In this document: piece after piece, positions 1-58,960 of the stretch
Layout: each line of letters opens with the position of its first letter
Numbering within the stretch: the first letter of the stretch is position 1
Origin: a virus
Strand: one strand, 5' to 3'
DNA length: 64,000 nt
UHGV virus genome: UHGV-0141727
Made by a program: the position numbers and the translations under genes
The notes under the pieces: model-generated
The model's database searches: none
What the model was told of the DNA's origin: nothing
Seen by the model: the letters and a program-made list of their open reading frames with translations, nothing else

Positions 1-90
1 TAAATCCGCCTTAAGCGGTACGGTTTGAGAGGGTATGGAGTGTGTTAATTTCGCAGAATCACACCCCGAAGGTTCTTACTCAAAAGGGGA

Positions 91-588
91 TCATGGTTGA
101 ACCTGGATAACATCACCGTTCTTAACGGTAATGATTTTGTTCAGAAGAACGATTTGCGGGAAATTTCCAGCATACCAACTGAACGAACCAATCACTTCAT
201 ACTGGCCTGGTGGTACGTTTTCGAACTCAAATTTGCCTTGAGCATCTGTCAGGACAGTTCTGTCATATTCCGCAACCCTGCCGTCGATTATTTCTAAGGT
301 CTGAGTGTCGTAATCAATTTTGGGGGTATTTTTGATATATGAAGTATACGGACGCAGTATGATATTGGAGCCAGCACCAATCTTCACATCCCCTCCGCGA
401 GTTACTCCAAATAATTCCCCCTTAACCTTACCTGTGCCTTTTTTCGGCAATGCCTGATATTCCTCGACAGGGAATGCCGGGCGTTTAACAAACTGTTTTA
501 CTTGCTGAGGCTTGTTGTATGTCTGAACCGGAGCACATCCTGATAATGCAAATGCACAAACAATAGTCGCTAATATTGCTTTTTTCAT
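91..588 (-). CDS. lipoprotein with CarboxypepD_reg-like region
   Basis: ORF 91..624; internal ATG at 588 gives MKKAILATIVCAFALSGC signal peptide with lipobox; GQYEV-type motif. Confidence 0.5.
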   Translation of the reverse strand: MKKAILATIVCAFALSGCAPVQTYNKPQQVKQFVKRPAFPVEEYQALPKKGTGKVKGELFGVTRGGDVKIGAGSNIILRPYTSYIKNTPKIDYDTQTLEIIDGRVAEYDRTVLTDAQGKFEFENVPPGQYEVIGSFSWYAGNFPQIVLLNKIITVKNGDVIQVQP

Positions 589-781
589 AACTTTCTCTTT
601 TCTCAAATAAATAACGCAAACCAATAATAACTAGTGTTATCATTAACTTAGCGCAACTTAACTTTTCTGTTAGATAATACATTGAATAAAGTTAAAGATG
701 AATGCCGTTTAATAATGTTTGGTGTAATAGAAATCACATTCTCAACATAGTTATTGCTCTTTTTTCATTCGGAGCATGATT

Positions 782-1267
782 ATGATCAATAATGAACCTC
801 GCTGGCTTATTGAAGCCCGTAAAAATATTGGAGTCACCGAAATAAAAGGAGCGAAACACAATCCTGAGATCGTCCAGTTCTGGCGGGATATTAAGCGCAG
901 CGGAATTAAAGACGACGAAACGCCGTGGTGCGCTGCATTTGTTGGTGCAATGCTGGAACGTGTAGGTATCCGCTCAACAAGATTTGAGTCGGCAAAATCC
1001 TATCTGGATTGGGGCGAGAAATTAGATACACCGGCATACGGATGTATCGTTGTATTTACTCGCGCAGGCGGTGGGCATGTAGGCTTTGTTGTCGGACGCC
1101 GCGCCAATGGCGATCTGCTTGTCTTGGGTGGGAACCAGGGGGATGCTGTTAATATTCGCGCATTCCCAACATCAAGAGTGTCTGGCTATCGCTGGCCTGC
1201 TGGCGAACCACGCAATACAGCTCTGTTACCAGTCGGAGACGCAGCAACCTCAACTAATGAGGCATAA
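782..1267 (+). CDS. cell-wall peptidase (CHAP/NlpC-P60-like Cys-His), probable endolysin-type hydrolase
   Basis: ORF 776..1267; WCAAFVG Cys and GGHVGFVV His motifs; GGAG 7 nt upstream of ATG 782. Confidence 0.5.
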   Translation: MINNEPRWLIEARKNIGVTEIKGAKHNPEIVQFWRDIKRSGIKDDETPWCAAFVGAMLERVGIRSTRFESAKSYLDWGEKLDTPAYGCIVVFTRAGGGHVGFVVGRRANGDLLVLGGNQGDAVNIRAFPTSRVSGYRWPAGEPRNTALLPVGDAATSTNEA

Positions 1268-1290
1268 AAAAGCCCCGGCCAGGCCGGGGC
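1265..1290 (-). terminator. GC-rich hairpin GCCCCGG/CCGGGGC followed by T-run on minus strand, downstream of ant fragment
   Basis: inverted repeat 1272-1290 with A6 on plus (T6 on minus). Confidence 0.5.
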
Positions 1291-1298
1291 ATCACACT

Positions 1299-2203
1299 TC
1301 AAGTTACGATCCAATCATTACCGACTGCATCCGCCGTCGATAAATCGACTTCCCGGATCTGGTATCCATTAATACAAAACCATCCAGTGGTAGAGCTATT
1401 ATCAGGCCAGACCCATACACCAACACTCCATGCTTTACGGCGGCACACTTCAGCCTGTCCTTCCCTGATTTTTTTTACCGCCTGCATGATGTCCATCACT
1501 CGCCTCCCCAACCGATTACCTGGAATTGCCCCATCCTTGGGTGATACCAGCGTTTTCCTCGGTGTTCAGCCTCCGACATCATCAGGGTAAAGGCATTCAT
1601 GAAGGGAGATAAGGCCACAATAGTACGACGCGACAATACCCCCTCTGGCGTCAAAAACTCATGCGTATCTGTGGGGATCCGGTAAGCGTTGACCAAGTTA
1701 CGGCATTTGGCTTCAGTCAGGCCGCATTTCGCCGCTAACTGGCGATAGCCAATGTAACCTTCCGGCATGTTGCCCTTCTTGATCTGCTCGACGGTTTCAG
1801 CGACCTGGCTAACCTTTGACTCAACAGCATGAAGCCGCTTTTGCTGCTGAACTGCATTCGCAGCCATTGCAGCGATCATCTCTATTTCGGTCAACGGCTG
1901 GCGTACTTGTTCTTCCAGTTCGCGCCAGCGGTCCACCAGCCGGGCGGTAAATTCGGGAGAAAGCTGCGCAACGACAATGATACTGTCACGCTTGCCTTGC
2001 TCGCCTTCGAAGAAATAGGCTTTTGTGTATTTATTAGGGCTAAGTGATTGATTATTCTCAACTGTAGCCAATGGCGTATGTTGGATAACTCCTTTAGCAA
2101 CAAGTCTTTCGATGCTGCGTTTAACATCAGAGTGACGACTTCCCACCAGTTCCGCGATCTCAATGCTGGTCATTGATGGCTTTTCGAGAATGCAGATATC
2201 CAT
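1299..2203 (-). pseudogene. Rha-family antirepressor (Ant-like) disrupted by frameshift
   Basis: ORFs 1496..2203 (Rha N-terminal domain, IAELVGSRH motif) and 1299..1511 overlap in different frames; together they align to the intact paralog 51286..52227. Confidence 0.55.
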
Positions 2204-2427
2204 CAGTGAGCCTCCGCAATGCCGGGATTGGTAATATTGCGATACCAGGGATTAGTGTTTGGTTGTGGGGAAGTAGAGAAACGACCAGTGAGAACGCCAT
2301 ACTGATCAGGGATCAGAGAACGGGCTTCTTTTTCAGTTGCGGCAATTGCGAAGTGATCACAATGTTTTTGCAGGGAGTGGAAACGCCAGATGAATTCTGG
2401 ACGTGAGCAAGGATTGGCATTAACCAT
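2203..2427 (-). CDS. icd: Icd-like host cell division inhibitor
   Basis: C-terminal part of ORF 2203..2751; internal ATG at 2427 with GAGG upstream; EFIWRFHSLQKH motif shared with paralog 52227..52442; directly precedes ant-like gene. Confidence 0.55.
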   Translation of the reverse strand: MVNANPCSRPEFIWRFHSLQKHCDHFAIAATEKEARSLIPDQYGVLTGRFSTSPQPNTNPWYRNITNPGIAEAH

Positions 2428-2583
2428 AGTTACGGCCTCATGTACAGGTTTAACAACCTGCAACCCGCTGCTAAACGGGTGGCAGGACGTGACGGGGTTA
2501 GCAGACTGGCGTACATGAAACCAGCAGGCCGAAGCCTCCCCATCACGCCCCACCATAATTTGGGCGTAACGTGGTTTACGGAC

Positions 2584-2614
2584 ACAAAAATACCGCAATA
2601 TCGGATATCTGCGG
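2584..2614 (-). terminator. hairpin plus T-tract on minus strand about 160 nt upstream of icd start
   Basis: CCGCA...TGCGG stem followed by TATTTTTGTG on minus strand; analogous element in copy 2 at 52625-52651. Confidence 0.3.
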
Positions 2615-2754
2615 TTGTCCGCATGTACATTCAGGCTGCTAAACCCGGTCGCAGAATTTGCTACGACGGCATGAATATAAGCCTGAACATTAGAAAGATC
2701 AACAGAATTTTTATCAGATGCTGTTTTTTTGTGACGATGTAAATCATACATTCC

Positions 2755-2787
2755 TGATTAGAAACATCAATTTAATTTTCTAACACA
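2755..2787. promoter_or_regulatory. operator-like inverted repeat ATTAGAAA-N12-TTTCTAAC upstream of immunity-like module 1
   Basis: member of recurring TGTTAGAAAA/TTTTCTAACA motif family seen at 7 sites. Confidence 0.4.
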
Positions 2788-2842
2788 CAATTACGAGCGA
2801 TGATTTTTCCGCCGCACGGTTATTGTACAGTCAATCGCAACA

Positions 2843-3802
2843 TCATCCCCGAAAGCCCTCCGGAATTGACCAGTCTTCCCGGTCAAATTCAGACCGATAG
2901 CCACGCTGTTTCATCTGGTCAAATGCTTCATTGATGGTTGCACATCCCTGGGAACCAGAATAATCCATAGAGAAATCCAGGGCGCTGGATCGTTTGGGCT
3001 TATTCACCGTGGTAGCACTACGTATCCATGCAAATTTTTTTGCCAGTTTTTCAGCGGTACGATACAGAGCCTGCCGTTTTGCGTACCCCTCGTCTGAACG
3101 ACGCTTTGCAGCTCTCGCTTTTGCCGCCGCCAAACAGTGGTTGGTATGTTCTTCCCTGATTACTGTTTTTTTATCCAGCAAGCCATTATCCGCTTGAGAA
3201 CTATCTGCTGGTGAAGCCTTTGGCTGAACCGCGCATGATCTTTCTCTTCTTTTGGCTATAGAGTGACTCTTATTTTCTATTGGCTGTTCATTTTGAACAT
3301 GGGGGGACTTGTTCAATTTGAACAGGGGGTGCCCAGTTTCAAAAAAATAACGAACCTTTGAAATCAACTGCTTAACCAGTTTTGTGGCGTTGGCAAATTT
3401 GATGCCCTGCTTACTCCCTATCTCCATTGCTACATGAATGAAGTGGAGAAATTGTGTTGTAAACCGGTACACGTTACACACCTGAGCATTGTTATTCGCT
3501 ACCTGATGCTGCTTAACAAGCATTCCGCACTTCGTCGCTTCGGTAAATGCCCGGCGCACAGTAGAAATACTGCGTCCTGTAATCTCGGACATATCAGCAT
3601 ATGAGCGACGGATCATGTATTCATCGGTAGCTCCTGCCAGGTTGGCGAACTCGGCAATAATGGCGCTATGTGAAGGGGAAAGAAAACCGCTATGACGAGC
3701 AAAAAAACTCAACTGATGACCTTTGATTTTTTTGTGGTATTCAGTGTTGTTTTTATACTCAGAAGTGTTGAAAGTTACTGGAACTGAATTTAAAATACTC
3801 AT
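2843..3802 (-). CDS. winged-HTH DNA-binding protein (possible replication or regulatory protein)
   Basis: ORF; HTH-like segment SEITGRSISTVRRAFTEATKCGMLV; 9-bp inverted repeat GTATAAATC/GATTTATAC in its promoter region 3828-3856. Confidence 0.35.
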   Translation of the reverse strand: MSILNSVPVTFNTSEYKNNTEYHKKIKGHQLSFFARHSGFLSPSHSAIIAEFANLAGATDEYMIRRSYADMSEITGRSISTVRRAFTEATKCGMLVKQHQVANNNAQVCNVYRFTTQFLHFIHVAMEIGSKQGIKFANATKLVKQLISKVRYFFETGHPLFKLNKSPHVQNEQPIENKSHSIAKRRERSCAVQPKASPADSSQADNGLLDKKTVIREEHTNHCLAAAKARAAKRRSDEGYAKRQALYRTAEKLAKKFAWIRSATTVNKPKRSSALDFSMDYSGSQGCATINEAFDQMKQRGYRSEFDREDWSIPEGFRG

Positions 3803-3864
3803 CAGATAGTTCCGTGAAAAATCTATCTACCGTATAAATCTATGCCAGTGGATTTATACACCCA

Positions 3865-3896
3865 AAAGCCGCTACTCAGCGGCTTTTGCTTTTTTG
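3865..3896 (+). terminator. intrinsic terminator-like hairpin AAAGCCGCT/AGCGGCTTT with T-tract on plus strand
   Basis: stem-loop followed by TTGCTTTTTTGG; no annotated plus-strand gene upstream. Confidence 0.35.
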
Positions 3897-4000
3897 GCAG
3901 TCGCTACCGGAGCAGTGACCGCGATCCTACTCGATCACGTGCCGTCGGATCAACAGTGTATAAAAACACACTGTGTTAGAAAATTAAGCTAGCTTTTAGC

Positions 4001-4999
4001 TCACATCCTCTTAGACACAAAGATCAGCGGAGTCACCGTCTTGTTCTCTTTCACCGGTATTTCTTGTTGTTTATTGGCTGATATTGGCAGACCATAAGTG
4101 GCATTAGCCCCTAGGGATTCAAGCATCGCTGCGACAATGCGTGCATCATCCTCTGACTGCATACGGCAGAGCGCCCGGCGCTGTTCTGCGCTGATAAAAA
4201 CAGGCATTTCCTGGATAGCATCACGCAAAATACGGCGGCATTTCTTCGCGTTCTCCCCCTGGCTTTCCATCATCGCGGCCTGGTCGCGTAGTTTGTCGCG
4301 AAGCTGCATATTTTCCACTTCAAGATGTATCAGTTCCGATTCCAGAGCTTCACGCTGTGCTGATTCAATCATTGCTTGTTGACTTTGCATTTGTGCAAAG
4401 TGATGAACAATATCTGTAGCCTGATTGTCAGTGAAACCTTGATCCATCAGCGACGTGTGCATAACAGCTTCACGCTCTTCAACGGACTCCATCATCGGTA
4501 TCTGTTTATCGAGGCTGATATAGTTCGGCACGGTAACGTAATCAAATCCATGAAAGGAGTTTACTATTGACACGAAAGAATCAGGTCCAATAGTCGCCCA
4601 TGACCAACCGCCAGCATTTGAGTTGATCAATCCTTGAACAATATGCCCTGTATATGAATCAAGAATTTCTTGGGTGTGCGTAATGACACCATTATCGTCA
4701 ATAGAAATATCAACTGTTCTGTTAGATGGCACATTTTCCAGAAGAAGAGGCTTACCATCCATCATAACAACGCAAACCTCTGGCAAATCTAGTGATTTAG
4801 TTTTGTTGTAATACATCGAGCGGCGACCATGACCGTAATATCCAAATAGCTCACCAAGAGCCATGCGCTCTTTAACTAGCGGTGATGTTATGGTTTTTCG
4901 CACAGCCTCAATAATGTATTTTCGGTTGTTCTGCGGTGTATGTTTGCGGATTTTCTCTACCAGGGAGAAGCGATCCGTAACGGTATTCAGTGATTGCAT
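4001..4999 (-). CDS. head morphogenesis protein (prohead protease/scaffold-like by size and position)
   Basis: ORF 332 aa immediately downstream of portal-size gene; coiled-coil C-terminal half. Confidence 0.3.
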   Translation of the reverse strand: MQSLNTVTDRFSLVEKIRKHTPQNNRKYIIEAVRKTITSPLVKERMALGELFGYYGHGRRSMYYNKTKSLDLPEVCVVMMDGKPLLLENVPSNRTVDISIDDNGVITHTQEILDSYTGHIVQGLINSNAGGWSWATIGPDSFVSIVNSFHGFDYVTVPNYISLDKQIPMMESVEEREAVMHTSLMDQGFTDNQATDIVHHFAQMQSQQAMIESAQREALESELIHLEVENMQLRDKLRDQAAMMESQGENAKKCRRILRDAIQEMPVFISAEQRRALCRMQSEDDARIVAAMLESLGANATYGLPISANKQQEIPVKENKTVTPLIFVSKRM

Positions 5000-34036: not shown

Positions 34037-34084
34037 GTGTTAGTATGGTTTAATCTTAATTTTCTAACATAAAACATTAGAACA
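34037..34084. promoter_or_regulatory. operator-like site with TGTTAG/TTTTCTAACA/CATTAGAACA half-sites
   Basis: recurring motif family, directly upstream of plus-strand gene 34085. Confidence 0.4.
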
Positions 34085-34477
34085 ATGGCGTACAAGATCT
34101 TCGTTTCATACAAAAATGGTGCTAAAAGCCATTCTCTGAACACAAGCAGCAGATGCCTTGTAGAAGCTCAACTGTCATCAATCCTTACTGAAAGAGACAT
34201 TCTTTCCTTGGCTGAACGAATCGTGATTCTCCATTCAGGTAAGGCTATTCTTAATGTTCCTGCGCTTACCCCGCCTTCTGACGTTTTGGCATCTGTTAAG
34301 TGGCCTCAAATCGGCACACCTGTAAGAGTGGAAGATCCTGTAACCACCACTCTTTATATGCCGAAGTCAGTAAGGGATTGGCTTGCTGCGGTTGGTAATG
34401 GGAAGGTCAGCGCGGGGCTTCGGAAGTTAGTGGAAATGGCTGATATTCCGGAGCTGAAAAATGCATGGAGACAGTGA
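34085..34477 (+). CDS. hypothetical protein with C-terminal ribbon-helix-helix-like segment
   Basis: ORF 130 aa on opposite strand to virion genes; C-terminus TTLYMPKSVRDWLAAVGNGKVSAGLRKLVEMA. Confidence 0.35.
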   Translation: MAYKIFVSYKNGAKSHSLNTSSRCLVEAQLSSILTERDILSLAERIVILHSGKAILNVPALTPPSDVLASVKWPQIGTPVRVEDPVTTTLYMPKSVRDWLAAVGNGKVSAGLRKLVEMADIPELKNAWRQ

Positions 34478-42123: not shown

Positions 42124-42165
42124 AAACTGTGTTAGAAAATAAAACTCAATTATCTAACACAGTTT
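42124..42165. promoter_or_regulatory. perfect 13-bp inverted repeat AAACTGTGTTAGA/TCTAACACAGTTT operator-like site upstream of rdgC operon
   Basis: member of TGTTAGAA motif family. Confidence 0.45.
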
Positions 42166-46080: not shown

Positions 46081-46082
46081 CA

Positions 46083-46104
46083 AAGCCCACCTTAAGGTGG
46101 GCTT
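46083..46104. terminator. hairpin AAGCCCACC/GGTGGGCTT directly after 45541..46080
   Basis: 9-bp stem; T-tract on minus side. Confidence 0.45.
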
Positions 46105-46305
46105 CGCCAGAAATTATTTTCTGGTATTCAGAACGCCATTACCGGACTTTGCCTTGACCAAGTATCACAACTGGTTTGACCTGTTATGATAGCTGGTTGC
46201 GGGATGTCTGAATTTCTTCAGTCTGCTGCATCCTCGAAGGTTTGGTTCAACATGTACCATTCCTTCACCGTCATAATAGTGTACTATTCACGTCCTTGCA
46301 AACAC

Positions 46306-51258: not shown

Positions 51259-51277
51259 GCCCCGGCATGACCGGGGC
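51259..51277. terminator. hairpin GCCCCGG/CCGGGGC downstream of ant copy 2 (same stem as at 1272-1290)
   Basis: inverted repeat. Confidence 0.35.
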
Positions 51278-51285
51278 AAAAGCTA

Positions 51286-52227
51286 TTAACTAATAATCCA
51301 GTCGGTTGCTGCTACATCTTCTGGCTGCAAATCAATCGCACAGATCTTACCGTCGCGAATGGTGCGCCAGTTTTTCCGTGAGCCTCTTTCGGGCCATACC
51401 CAGACACTTTCAGGCCAGGATGCTCGACGGCATACGGTTGCATACCCTGTTTTAATCTTCTCTCTGGCGGTATGCAACGACAGGTTTGCCTTTGGACTTT
51501 CAGGCACAGGATGGTGAATGGCCTGAAATAGCCCCATCTTGGGATGATACCAGCGTTTGTTACGTGGTTCTGCCTCCGACATAACCTGCTTAAAGGCTTT
51601 CCGGAAGGGGGCCAGGGCCACAATGGAACGTCGCGCAAGCAAACCGTCGGGAGTTAAAAACTCATGCGTATCAGTGGGTATCCGGTAAGCGTTGACCAGG
51701 TTACGGCATTTGGCTTCAGTCAGGCCACATTTCGCCGCCAACTGGCGGTAGCCAATGTAGCCTTCCGGAATATTGCCTTTCTTGATCTGCTCGACGGTTT
51801 CAGCGACTTTGGACACTTGTGCCGATACTTCGGCTACCTGGGCATTAACGGCGTTGATCCGGCGTTCATGCTCAAGATGCATTTGCGCCATTTCAGCCAG
51901 AATTTCGGCTTTTGATTTTAACTGTGCCCGGGCATTCTCCAGTTCGCGCCAGCGGTCCACCAGCCGGGCGGTGAATTCGGGAGAGAGCTGCGCGACGACA
52001 ATAATGCTGTCTCGTTTGCCTTGCTCGCCTTCAAAGACATAGACCGGATCTTTGACAACCTTCCCTAAGTTATTGATTCTTTCGACGAACTCATTTTGAG
52101 TTTCTCGGATGACACCGCTCGCCATCATATTGCGAATGGTACGTAAAACGTTGCCATGACGACTACCAACTAACTCTGCAATATCCAGGCTATTCATTGT
52201 AGCTTTTTGGGTGATAGACAGATTCAT
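51286..52227 (-). CDS. Rha-family antirepressor (Ant-like), intact copy
   Basis: 313-aa ORF with Rha N-terminal motif; paralog of frameshifted 1299..2203. Confidence 0.65.
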   Translation of the reverse strand: MNLSITQKATMNSLDIAELVGSRHGNVLRTIRNMMASGVIRETQNEFVERINNLGKVVKDPVYVFEGEQGKRDSIIVVAQLSPEFTARLVDRWRELENARAQLKSKAEILAEMAQMHLEHERRINAVNAQVAEVSAQVSKVAETVEQIKKGNIPEGYIGYRQLAAKCGLTEAKCRNLVNAYRIPTDTHEFLTPDGLLARRSIVALAPFRKAFKQVMSEAEPRNKRWYHPKMGLFQAIHHPVPESPKANLSLHTAREKIKTGYATVCRRASWPESVWVWPERGSRKNWRTIRDGKICAIDLQPEDVAATDWIIS

Positions 52228-52442
52228 CAGTGCACCTCCACGCAGTTCATTGGTAGATTCCAGTAATTGAGGATCTCCATCGCATCAAGAGTGAAGCGTG
52301 CGGCAAAAATGCAGGGTTCTTCGGGAAGGTATGAGCGCGCCTCTGCTTCGGTAGCAGCCATTACGCAGATATAGAGGTGTTTTTGGCAGGAATAGAAACG
52401 CCAGATAAATTCAGAATGAGTTGGGGTAGGGATAGTAGCCAT
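52227..52442 (-). CDS. icd: Icd-like host cell division inhibitor
   Basis: 71-aa ORF, AAGGAGG RBS, EFIWRFYSCQKH motif; precedes ant. Confidence 0.6.
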   Translation of the reverse strand: MATIPTPTHSEFIWRFYSCQKHLYICVMAATEAEARSYLPEEPCIFAARFTLDAMEILNYWNLPMNCVEVH

Positions 52443-52459
52443 ATTGGCAGCCTCCTTTG

Positions 52460-52620
52460 ACTAAGTTAAGGAGCTACCGCGTGAGGTTCCAATCTCAATG
52501 GCGGTAGCACTGACTGGGTTGGAACTACCGGCGTCAAAGGGAACCGGCCTGCCTTTCGGCAGCCCAGCCAGCACTACCATTGATCTCTGAGCTAAACGCT
52601 ACGTATGGCTGTGCGATGGC
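52460..52620 (-). ncRNA. candidate c4-like antisense/leader RNA region upstream of icd (inference only)
   Basis: ORF-free structured region between a terminator and icd; position analogous to P1 c4. Confidence 0.2.
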
Positions 52621-52624
52621 ATGA

Positions 52625-52651
52625 CACAAAAAAAGACGCTTTCGGCGTCTG
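52625..52651 (-). terminator. intrinsic terminator AGACGC/GCGTCT plus T7 on minus strand
   Basis: hairpin immediately followed by TTTTTTTGTG. Confidence 0.55.
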
Positions 52652-52755
52652 TGTCGCCTTTGACATTATCCGGGGTTCCAATCCCGGCACCCGTTTTTCT
52701 AAGGTGCCGTAGAAATATACCCCACGATAATGCCAGGGCGCAACTGTGTGTTTTC

Positions 52756-52923
52756 TTATGCTTTTCTTTTCTTCTTTTGGGCTTGCTTGCAAGCGTAGGC
52801 CATTGCTTTAGCTTTCACTTCATCCAGCTTCCCGGTGATCACTTCTTTTCCAAGAGTGACAAACCAATCATAGCAACCGCCAGTGATGTTCTGGATTTGA
52901 AAGTTGAGGTAGCGAACGGTCAT
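52756..52923 (-). CDS. small basic protein (55 aa), not in supplied ORF track
   Basis: manual translation MTVRYLNFQIQNITGGCYDWFVTLGKEV...KKKRKA. Confidence 0.25.
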   Translation of the reverse strand: MTVRYLNFQIQNITGGCYDWFVTLGKEVITGKLDEVKAKAMAYACKQAQKKKRKA

Positions 52924-53254
52924 TTTGACACCCCCAGCGCGAGTAAAGAATGCAGATTATCGCGTGAGTGGCGGACAACGAGTGATGGGAAAAGACAGTA
53001 GCTGTTCATAGTGTAGTGACTCCTTGCTTTTGGAGCCGCCATCGACTGTTCCACGGTCTGGTGGCGGCGCAATAAAGGTTGGAACACCGTGAGTCAACGG
53101 GGGCTTTTCAGCCACCTATATTGCACCGCCATTGGTATGGCGGCGGCAATCATACGAAAAACCAAACGGTTTGTCTCAAAAAGTTGACCGGTGTACCAAT
53201 CGGTTGTGAATGTACAACGGTGAATTTCACAATTCAACTTAAAATGTTAGAAAA

Positions 53255-53830
53255 CTAATTTATTAATTCAGTCACCATCTGATACAACGTCATTTCATCG
53301 GCATTGTGCCGCCTGAAATCTGCTTTGCCGCCTATTTTTCCATCAGCATGAACAGGGACCAACCAGGGGTATTGCTCGCGTATCTCTGCTGGCGCTGCGT
53401 GTTGATGGTGCCATTTACACAAAGGGAGAACGTATTTATGCGCGTTCTCTGCCGTTCTCCCGAAGATGTGGTGCAGGGATACCACAGGGCTATGCTGTCC
53501 GTGCATATGGCAGGCAATGCAGGGGAGAGCACCGATGGCAGTTTGTATCCGGCGCTCATCTGCTGTGAGCGTTCTGCCTTTCAGGCCACGTGACGTGCGC
53601 GTTTTTTTGACTGGAGCAGAAGCGGCCTTCTCTTTTCTTCGCTGTTCATATTGCTTCGCTTTTTCAATTTTCTTTTGCCGATATTCAGGCGATGCAGCCT
53701 TTTCTCGCGCACGCTGCTGCTGGCGTTGAGCTTGCTGAAGACGCTTTGCCCTTTGTTCCTCCCGCCATTTCGGATCAGCCAGTTTTTTCAGGGCTTTTTG
53801 CGTCTGTTTCTCCCAATAGCTTTGCTTCAT
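53255..53830 (-). CDS. Ref-like HNH-type nuclease (P1 recombination enhancement function-like)
   Basis: ORF 53255..53872; Lys/Arg/Gln-rich N-terminus, C-terminal Cys/His cluster CIACHMHG...HHIFG...PLCKWHH. Confidence 0.45.
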   Translation of the reverse strand: MKQSYWEKQTQKALKKLADPKWREEQRAKRLQQAQRQQQRAREKAASPEYRQKKIEKAKQYEQRRKEKAASAPVKKTRTSRGLKGRTLTADERRIQTAIGALPCIACHMHGQHSPVVSLHHIFGRTAENAHKYVLPLCKWHHQHAAPAEIREQYPWLVPVHADGKIGGKADFRRHNADEMTLYQMVTELIN

Positions 53831-53872: not shown

Positions 53873-53911
53873 ATGTGTTAGAAAATCAAAATTGATTTTC
53901 TAACACAAAAT
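53873..53911. promoter_or_regulatory. near-perfect 34-bp palindrome TGTGTTAGAAAATCAA AA TTGATTTTCTAACACA in divergent promoter region
   Basis: strongest member of the recurring operator-like motif family. Confidence 0.5.
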
Positions 53912-58925: not shown

Positions 58926-58960
58926 GATGTTAGAATATTGATTTTAATTTTCTAACAGAT
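58926..58960. promoter_or_regulatory. operator-like inverted repeat TGTTAGAA-N14-TTCTAACA upstream of 59000 gene
   Basis: member of recurring motif family. Confidence 0.4.

Follow-up and report, generated by a model that had tools for sequence, protein, structure and literature searches.

The stretch analysed here (the window) comprises 64,000 nucleotides (nt) of the virus genome UHGV-0141727. Our subject is the region at 51259-53266, in which all features lie on the minus strand unless stated otherwise. In the direction of transcription, this region carries an operator-like site, a C4-like RNA (C4u) followed by two small open reading frames (ORFs), an IsrK-type leader, a C4 antisense RNA, an icd-like gene and a gene for a 313-amino-acid (aa) Rha-family protein labelled Ant. 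A related module lies near the other end of the window; we refer to it as copy 1 and to the module studied here as copy 2. Given the RNA family matches, folds, complementarities and covariation described below, we consider it highly probable that this region works as a secondary-immunity unit of the C4 / P4-CI / IsrK antisense-RNA class in a D6-like, P1-family plasmid prophage.

The leader of copy 2 is preceded by promoter-like hexamers that were read from the sequence and were not flagged by the promoter scan (TTGCGC at 52743-52738, an 18-nt spacer, and TATATT at 52719-52714). They lie 6-7 nt upstream of the first base of a full-model match to Rfam isrK (RF01394; 52629-52707; 62.7 bits, cut-off 50). 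The match contains, in order, a hairpin, a second hairpin with the site a1 (TTGGAAC, 52681-52675) in its loop, the site b1 (GTCAAAGG, 52664-52657) and an intrinsic terminator. An earlier note on this DNA had reported a strong minus-strand terminator, and the pattern scan places it at 52650-52634 (AGACGCCGAAAGCGTCT followed by seven T residues). The C4 antisense RNA itself follows at 52497-52584 (Rfam C4, RF01695; 77.1 bits, cut-off 45), with its loops b' (CCUUUGAC) at 52540-52533 and a' (GUUCCAA) at 52525-52519. Downstream of C4 lie a second pair of target sites, a2 (TTGGAAC, 52492-52486) and b2 (GTCAAAGG, 52461-52454), the latter overlapping the icd Shine-Dalgarno sequence AAGGAGG (52457-52451), which stands 8 nt ahead of the ATG.

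The icd-like gene, for a cell-division inhibitor (52227-52442; 71 aa), passed NCBIfam NF033153 (49.4 bits, cut-off 25), matches phrog_1426 and is 64% identical to P7 Icd, so that the Icd-like gene with a strong ribosome-binding site of the earlier note is borne out. Its stop codon overlaps the ant start (TGATG, shared base 52227). As claimed, the 313-aa ant reading frame (51286-52227) is intact; its product has a Phage_pRha N-terminus (PF09669, E 3.7e-9) and matches phrog_63, 'anti-repressor Ant' (E 6e-61). After ant comes a hairpin read from the sequence, GCCCCGG-TCATG-CCGGGGC (51259-51277), followed only by TTTAA and not flagged by the terminator scan. The GCCCCGG/CCGGGGC hairpin had been described as common to both copies, and it does follow both ant genes (51277-51259 and 1290-1272), but only copy 1 has a T-run behind it.

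With regard to structure, minimum free energy folds give the C4 shape, with z about -5 in all three C4 RNAs of the window (-5.0 for copy 2). In the C4 family alignment, both partners have changed in 15 of the 23 pairs, and the share of paired cells is 97.7%, a figure that is favoured by the fitting of the alignment to the model (slid controls: 32-54% paired). The copy 2 leader had been called structured and free of ORFs. The structure stands through the isrK and C4 matches, but mechanical ORFs do overlap the leader RNAs, none of them credible. One such frame is called as a coding sequence (CDS) in D6, where orf84 (window equivalent 52498-52797, plus strand) runs over the C4/IsrK RNAs on the opposite strand. 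The features annotated beneath the plasmid matches include an 'ash family protein' from the Prokaryotic Genome Annotation Pipeline (PGAP), which may be a second such call. CDS calls over the RNAs (D6 orf84 and probably the 'ash family protein') are most likely artefacts, comparable to the historical 'cI protein' CDS over the RNA gene of P4. A GGCG/CGCC anti-terminator pairing in the IsrK leader, judged by eye, was too weak to claim.

Copy 1 is built on the same plan, and both copies are cassettes of one architecture, with copy 2 belonging to the known C4 / P4-CI / IsrK type. The copy 1 control region (2586-2785, minus strand, as are the following features unless noted) includes an Rfam c4-a1b1 match (53.9 bits, 2680-2628) and a match to the full isrK model at 2667-2586 that takes in a terminator-like hairpin but remains below cut-off (46.3 bits against 50). 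Further upstream lie an operator-like ATTTTCTAACA (2775-2785, plus strand) and two promoter-like sites, TTGATG..TATGAT (2770-2743) and TTGATC..TATATT (2702-2674). A 23-nt direct repeat (2689-2711 and 2757-2779; 83% identical, 68 nt apart) covers both -35 regions, an arrangement reminiscent of the paired P51a/P51b promoters of P1. The targets a1 (TTAGCAG, 2642-2636) and b1 (GTACATG, 2628-2622) precede a C4 at 2560-2475 (Rfam C4, 71.7 bits), and a2 (TTAGCAG, 2474-2468) and b2 (GTACATGA, 2445-2438, overlapping the Shine-Dalgarno GAGG) follow it. Then come icd (2427-2203; NF033153, 40 bits; 59% identical to P7 Icd), a 235-aa Ant (2203-1496), a 65-aa ORF of a separate family, phrog_7385 (1496-1299), and a terminator (1290-1272). 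Over c4-icd, the copy 1 region is 88% identical in DNA to P1/P7.

The earlier note had called copy 2 intact; copy 1, for its part, is not broken either. The 235-aa Ant and the 65-aa ORF, joined by a TGATG overlap, are annotated alike in D6 (orf18/orf17), and because D6 carries the same two-ORF layout we reject a frameshifted pseudogene. The two copies are paralogous in their proteins (Ant 63%, Icd 45% identity) and divergent in their leaders (~45% identical alignment columns), as had been observed before. The covariance-model search proposed in the note, over 52443-52760 and 2428-2750, gave C4 and IsrK/c4-a1b1 matches above cut-off in both leaders, so that the outcome which the note had named as refuting it did not occur.

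The pairing between C4 and its targets is exact within each copy. The copy 2 loops CCUUUGAC and GUUCCAA are exactly complementary to GTCAAAGG and TTGGAAC, and the copy 1 loops (U)CAUGUAC and CUGCUAA to GTACATG(A) and TTAGCAG, in each case both upstream and downstream of C4, with exact complements 7-8 nt long. No loop complementarity was found between copy 1 and copy 2. Searching the 64 kb for the combined a..b motif returned the expected sites only, against 0.01-0.02 expected (copy 2: 0.02). Cognate loop-target duplexes reached -26 to -34 kcal/mol against -16 to -20 for the non-cognate ones between the two copies and were the strongest in every row and column, in a comparison that is crude in that the loops were taken outside their structural context.

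We also built our own covariance model from seven C4 sequences and searched 86 sources with it. Differences between relatives are concentrated in the two C4 loops, and the 10 loop variants found are each matched by both target pairs, one class via G-U wobbles. Each of two b variants (GTCAAAGG and GCAAAAGG) is found together with each of two a variants (TTGGAAC and TTGAGAC), and this full set of four combinations suggests that the loop variants reassort. Because pairing is exact within and absent between the copies, and loops and targets co-vary in relatives, the view of the earlier note that each copy has its own antisense-RNA specificity, as in P1 versus P7, is supported at the sequence level. 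The loops and targets of copies 1 and 2 differ, and therefore the two cassettes should be orthogonal, with a separate specificity class of immunity for each. With C4u included, the three cassettes of the window likewise appear orthogonal, except for the a' loop core GUUCCA, which C4u and the C4 of copy 2 have in common in this element.

Identity to phage D6 (NC_050154) is ~90-91% both in the region studied here and in its counterpart at 1-4500, and dozens of ~90-kb E. coli and Salmonella plasmids match the same regions at up to 97%. Both modules are present in D6 in the same neighbourhoods, orf17-19 corresponding to the module that adjoins repL and the head genes and orf82-87 to the module between ref and a pmgF-like gene. 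Owing to the D6 match and these corresponding neighbourhoods, the window can be identified from its sequence as a D6-like, P1-family plasmid prophage. D6 contains all three C4-like RNAs, none of them annotated in its record. Its loops are directed at other targets: GCAAAAGG/TTGAGAC in copy 2 against GTCAAAGG/TTGGAAC in the window, and ACTTACG/TTGACAG in copy 1 against GTACATG/TTAGCAG. Because the loops of both modules differ, the window element and D6 are predicted to be heteroimmune at both.

That one element holds two copies is true, as the earlier note stated, but a second c4-icd region in D6-like plasmids has already been published (PMC6799933; pYU39_89), and the third C4-like RNA was overlooked. 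Additional ant modules are also known from the P1-like plasmids RCS47 and pTZ20_1P (PMC6906374). The Rfam isrK/C4 pattern is likewise found in D6, RCS47, JL22 and P7, and the isrK and C4 pair is already annotated in some Shiga toxin (Stx) phage records. In the searchable literature, the D6 genome paper being outside this scope, we found no description of a third C4-like cassette, of combinatorial loop classes or of the equivalence of isrK with a1b1.

Among known systems, the immI region of P1/P7 has the same order as copy 2: an a1/b1 leader, C4, a2/b2 at the icd ribosome-binding site, icd and an overlapping downstream gene. P1 and P7 also differ in specificity through two short loops, as the cassettes of the window do. 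There are differences as well. The distal gene is Ant1/Ant2 in P1/P7 and encodes a Rha-family protein, not a homologue, in the window; copy 2 lies between the ref and pmgF-like genes, whereas P1 immI (and copy 1) lies beside repL; and, unlike P1/P7 immI, copy 2 has a leader that is recognized by the isrK model and includes a strong terminator. According to the P1 model (PMC8198154), C4 blocks the ribosome-binding site of icd, and ant, being coupled to icd, is kept off.

A similar layout is seen in Gifsy-1 of Salmonella, where an IsrK-type leader with an intrinsic terminator is followed ~25-45 nt on by a C4-family RNA and then by a regulatory protein gene, as in the window. At 34131-34329 (minus strand) of Gifsy-1 (NC_010392), isrK overlaps c4-a1b1, and a 69-bit Rfam C4 match lies 25 nt downstream, just ahead of STM2616, at the position where PMC4825925 puts 'orf45' and STnc1160. 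Because the two models overlap there, and the copy 1 leader likewise matches the isrK model, Rfam isrK and c4-a1b1 describe one leader element, namely the a1/b1 leader with its intrinsic terminator. The isrK element is the a1/b1 target leader itself, a point that the earlier note had overlooked. Read-through of the IsrK terminator is reported to yield a ~80-nt processed RNA (STnc1160) complementary to IsrK, and IsrK is described as a homologue of P4 SeqA (PMC4825925). Gifsy-1 is an integrated lambdoid prophage and the window a plasmid prophage; Gifsy-1 lacks icd, its AnrP is unrelated to the Ant of the window, and its published model stresses activation of the mRNA by IsrK in trans (PMC4825925).

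For copy 2, we propose the following course of expression, processing and repression. A promoter without an operator (about 52743-52714) would start the transcript, whose first 80 nt would form the IsrK-type leader with the decoy sites a1/b1, closed by the intrinsic terminator at which most transcripts would stop. Read-through RNA would supply both the 88-nt C4, cut out and stable by analogy with P1/P4, and the icd-ant mRNA. The two exposed loops of C4 would then pair with a2/b2 on the mRNA of its own operon; icd would remain untranslated because b2 covers its ribosome-binding site, and the Rha-family Ant encoded next, with its start overlapping the stop of icd, would remain off. Pairing of C4 with a1/b1 on nascent leaders would probably favour termination, a feedback as in P4, and free short leader RNA could titrate C4, as IsrK does in Gifsy-1.

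It is possible, though not probable in our judgement, that control is instead mainly P4-like and not a translational block as in P1, with C4-a1/b1 pairing setting termination at 52650-52634 and the short IsrK-like RNA activating in trans by sequestering C4. A strong intrinsic terminator does lie between a1/b1 and C4, and the same layout recurs in copy 1 (sub-threshold), Gifsy-1 and P4; the copy 2 leader can be aligned with the P4 cI region (72.6% over ~145 nt). In P4 (seqA - timm - CI RNA - seqC), as in copy 2, complementary sites flank one antisense RNA, and a terminator separates the RNA from the upstream site. However, b2 sits on a Shine-Dalgarno in all three cassettes, which in copies 1 and 2 is that of icd, and the same holds for all relatives examined, pointing to translational occlusion as in P1. 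The CI RNA of P4 is its primary immunity factor, acting through premature termination of the replication operon; in the window, a P1-type protein repressor is presumably primary and the RNA target is a ribosome-binding site. The Gifsy-1 results count on both sides: IsrK supplied in trans raises downstream translation >100-fold, and CI-like termination control has been discussed, but constitutive STnc1160 failed to prevent IsrK-mediated growth arrest (PMC4825925). The P4-like and P1-like modes are not mutually exclusive.

The translational switch that we favour would act on Ant, in which the C-terminal ~65 aa (residues ~249-313) form a separate domain, 38% identical to the 65-aa ORF of copy 1 (1299-1496). 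The 65-aa unit stands alone after the copy 1 ant and is fused to Ant in copy 2. The body of Ant has no sequence relative in PDB, and its PADLOC matches are noise. The C-terminal domain was tested for a relation to Tad2, a Thoeris anti-defence protein. Pfam Tad2-like/DUF2829 (PF11195) gave weak full-length matches to the window sequences (16.1 and 11.1 bits) and to the homologue P0008 (23.9 bits), all under the cut-off of 25. For an AlphaFold2 (AF2) model of the unit with a predicted local distance difference test score (pLDDT) of 78, the top Foldseek match in PDB was SPO1 Tad2 (8sme_B; probability 0.80, template modelling score 0.52), which is non-significant at E 0.42. An exhaustive protein search returned only 8 relatives, too few for a profile. 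The Tad2-like signals are consistent but sub-threshold, and we treat them as a lead and not as a finding.

These observations bear on an alternative role for the output, which we think unlikely: the cassette would be a payload switch that moves horizontally and serves against other phages or the defences of the host, with no part in the lysis-lysogeny decision of its own element, and the Rha protein with its Tad2-like domain might induce or disarm other prophages or soak up a defence signal. The same RNA unit does stand before unrelated proteins (a P1 Ant1-like protein in RCS47, a 215-aa protein with a Rha N-terminus in Stx phage F039, AnrP in Gifsy-1, and other genes in P4), and it is found in 58 phage records, many of them of Stx phages. 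Beyond the Rha N-terminus, the Ant proteins showed no significant similarity to the Stx-phage ORF. The PF11195 matches of the C-terminal domain and of its copy 1 paralogue, the SPO1 Tad2 fold match and an IsrK promoter without an operator-like site would also suit a payload switch. On the other side, none of the Tad2 evidence reaches threshold, the cassette shares icd and its gene order with P1 immI, copy 1 occupies the P1 immI position by repL, and an operator-like site and a C1-type ref promoter lie just upstream. Such a switch would moreover alter only the role of the output, the RNA mechanism being the same.

Upstream of the IsrK leader lies the third cassette. Its candidate promoter hexamers, read from the sequence (TTGAAT at 53237-53232, a 17-nt spacer, and TACATT at 53214-53209), fall below the 9/12 threshold of the scan tool. 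Across 28 variant sequences they are nearly invariant (one base of the first hexamer is changed in two divergent variants), with a spacer that is variable. A second candidate promoter, GAGACA-17-TATGAT (53177-53149), was flagged by the scan. The weak IsrK-like leader of this cassette (53157-53204) has an a1-like TGGTACA within a hairpin (53198-53192), a b1-like GTCAAC recognized by complementarity (53188-53183), and a hairpin AAACC-GTTT-GGTTT followed by a U-run (53172-53159), whose stem stays paired through compensatory changes in variants (AAACTGTTTAGTTT, AAATCCTCAAGGATTT).

The C4-like RNA C4u occupies 53057-53136 (our own model, R1: 43.2 bits, E 1e-7) and folds as a C4 with a short second hairpin (-36.5 kcal/mol, z -5.3). 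It is present in D6, in whose record it is not annotated, and in >26 D6-like contigs, and is absent from RCS47 and JL22. Downstream of it, exact loop complements of 6-7 nt, a2 (TGGAACA, 53053-53047, offset +4) and b2 (GAGTCA, 53022-53017, offset +35, inside the Shine-Dalgarno AAGGAG at 53025-53020), stand at offsets like those of the other two cassettes (+5/+36 and +1/+30). A 29-codon ORF (MNSYCLFPSLVVRHSRDNLHSLLALGVSK; 52920-53009) follows, and its stop overlaps the start of the 55-aa ORF (ATGA). Because it is open in all variants and has no codon-position bias (8/9/11), the 29-codon ORF behaves as a leader peptide might.

The 55-aa ORF (52756-52923; phrog_7786, E 9e-42) had been described in the earlier note as unannotated and basic. 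It exists, is conserved and has a basic C-terminus, but it is annotated in D6 as orf85. Of its 35 variable sites, 20 are at third codon positions, and its homologues occur only in D6-like plasmids of ~90 kb, all without names. The AF2 model (pLDDT 83) has four strands and a helix and found no fold match in PDB; Pfam returned only a weak DUF3319 match, and NCBIfam and PADLOC nothing. The ORF shows no similarity to a P1-type Coi, and tblastn found no Coi in the 64-kb window. Most likely, to judge from this arrangement, the third cassette represses the 29-codon leader ORF and the coupled 55-aa protein.

It might be argued instead that C4u is the decaying remnant of a duplicated cassette and no longer functions, and that the 29-codon and 55-aa ORFs are expressed independently, if at all; we doubt this. 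C4u scores 42.3 bits against Rfam C4, 2.7 under the cut-off of 45 (E 1e-6, local search), its hairpin 2 is shortened, its upstream a1 site has one central mismatch, and the fold of its leader is no better than shuffles (z 0.18). Furthermore, it is confined to one plasmid lineage, and no loop variation is present with which covariation with the targets could be tested. However, nothing else between ref and the IsrK leader is as conserved as C4u (11% variable columns vs 44% upstream), its stems differ compensatorily between variants (T-T to C-G), a2 and b2 are invariant across the 28 variants at offsets typical of the family, with b2 within the Shine-Dalgarno, and both ORFs are open with their ATGA overlap in 27 of the 28.

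The stop codon of ref is followed immediately by an operator-like site, GTTTTCTAACA (53245-53255), which precedes the third cassette. This site had been proposed as an operator-family half-site and indeed matches the enriched 11-mer ATTTTCTAACA at 10 of 11 positions; several relatives have a perfect ATTTTCTAACA at this position. The motif family occurs 13 times in the window against 1.72 expected, a count reached in 0 of 100 shuffles, often as intergenic inverted pairs before ref, repL and immI-like genes. Its sites include 2775-2785 (+), 3974-3984 (-), 34059-34069 (+), 42130-42140 (-), 42149-42159 (+), 53876-53886 (-), 53895-53905 (+), 58928-58938 (-) and 58947-58957 (+), among others. They mark the copy 1 promoter, ref (as an inverted pair), repL and the sequence upstream of C4u; in the 11-mer motif scan of the window, none was found near the IsrK promoter of copy 2. 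P1 has C1 operators at the corresponding places (ref, repL and the immI promoter). In contrast to the P1 C1 operator, the window has a different operator-like motif, and one that lies upstream of an extra cassette; judging by the positions of its sites, ATTTTCTAACA probably serves D6-type elements as the C1 operator serves P1. The C1 repressor of the element may bind the site at 53245-53255. An operator guessed from the copy 1 repeat, TTGATSTTTCTAATS, was not enriched.

Several points weigh against a working secondary-immunity unit as we describe it, beyond the crudeness of the duplex comparison. The output of the switch may not be an antirepressor, because copy 2 Ant lacks homology to Ant1 and AnrP and has no ANT domain: BLASTP against P7 Ant1 gave E 0.017 and no meaningful alignment, comparison with the second Ant of RCS47 and with Gifsy-1 AnrP gave no significant similarity, and a Pfam scan found Phage_pRha and a helix-turn-helix only. 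For the Rha/Ant-like antirepressor of the earlier note, the Rha/phrog_63 family match stands, but antirepressor function is not established, since Ant has no homology to P1/P7 Ant1; what suggests such an activity is its position and its family labels. The promoter-like hexamers read from the sequence are weak and were not flagged by the scan. In the 64-kb window, tblastn found no C1 homologue, and the P1 consensus operator ATTGCTCTAATAAATTT had no match at <=3 mismatches, its core occurring at chance level; C1 control of the cassettes would for these two reasons be drawn by analogy only. The sub-threshold Rfam score, the a1 mismatch and the leader fold of the C4u cassette belong here too, as does a duplex of -21.9 kcal/mol between C4u and the copy 2 leader, which points to possible cross-talk.

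A broader proposal is that the C4-type RNAs of D6-like phage-plasmids would form a three-tier network, with C4u, under the operator-like site, controlling the 55-aa protein and cross-talking with icd-ant. The tandem cassettes would then time immunity in a graded or hierarchical manner and would not be mere independent duplicates, and Ant would carry a Tad2-like anti-defence domain. We consider the network, taken as a whole, quite improbable.

P1-family phage-plasmids disseminate resistance genes among E. coli and Salmonella, and which relatives are excluded or induce depends on immunity specificity. Here, a few loop bases and their targets are swapped in a mix-and-match fashion between elements that are otherwise ~90% identical, and the range of immunity of one element would be widened or partitioned where it holds two or three cassettes that are orthogonal. 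For annotation, the isrK and c4-a1b1 families stand for one leader, and a C4 RNA is present inside the 'orf45' region of Gifsy-1. Current models are not overturned by these results, which supply testable targets (loop swaps) and a candidate extra RNA.

Related arrangements were also seen elsewhere. In the P1-like phages RCS47 (2920-3402) and JL22 (2690-3198), isrK and C4, with an icd-like ORF, and ant form an insert between pacB and c1, beside the canonical immI; the RNAs of the insert are unannotated in both records, as is the icd-like ORF in RCS47. A pair of identical C4 matches was seen in one IMG/VR contig, at a distance of 1.57 kb and in the same orientation (1859-1946 and 3425-3512, plus strand), which may represent a tandem duplication of the cassette. 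Distant from the immunity modules, the window also contains a full-length Rfam sroH match at 46082-46267 (minus strand; 113 bits, cut-off 80).

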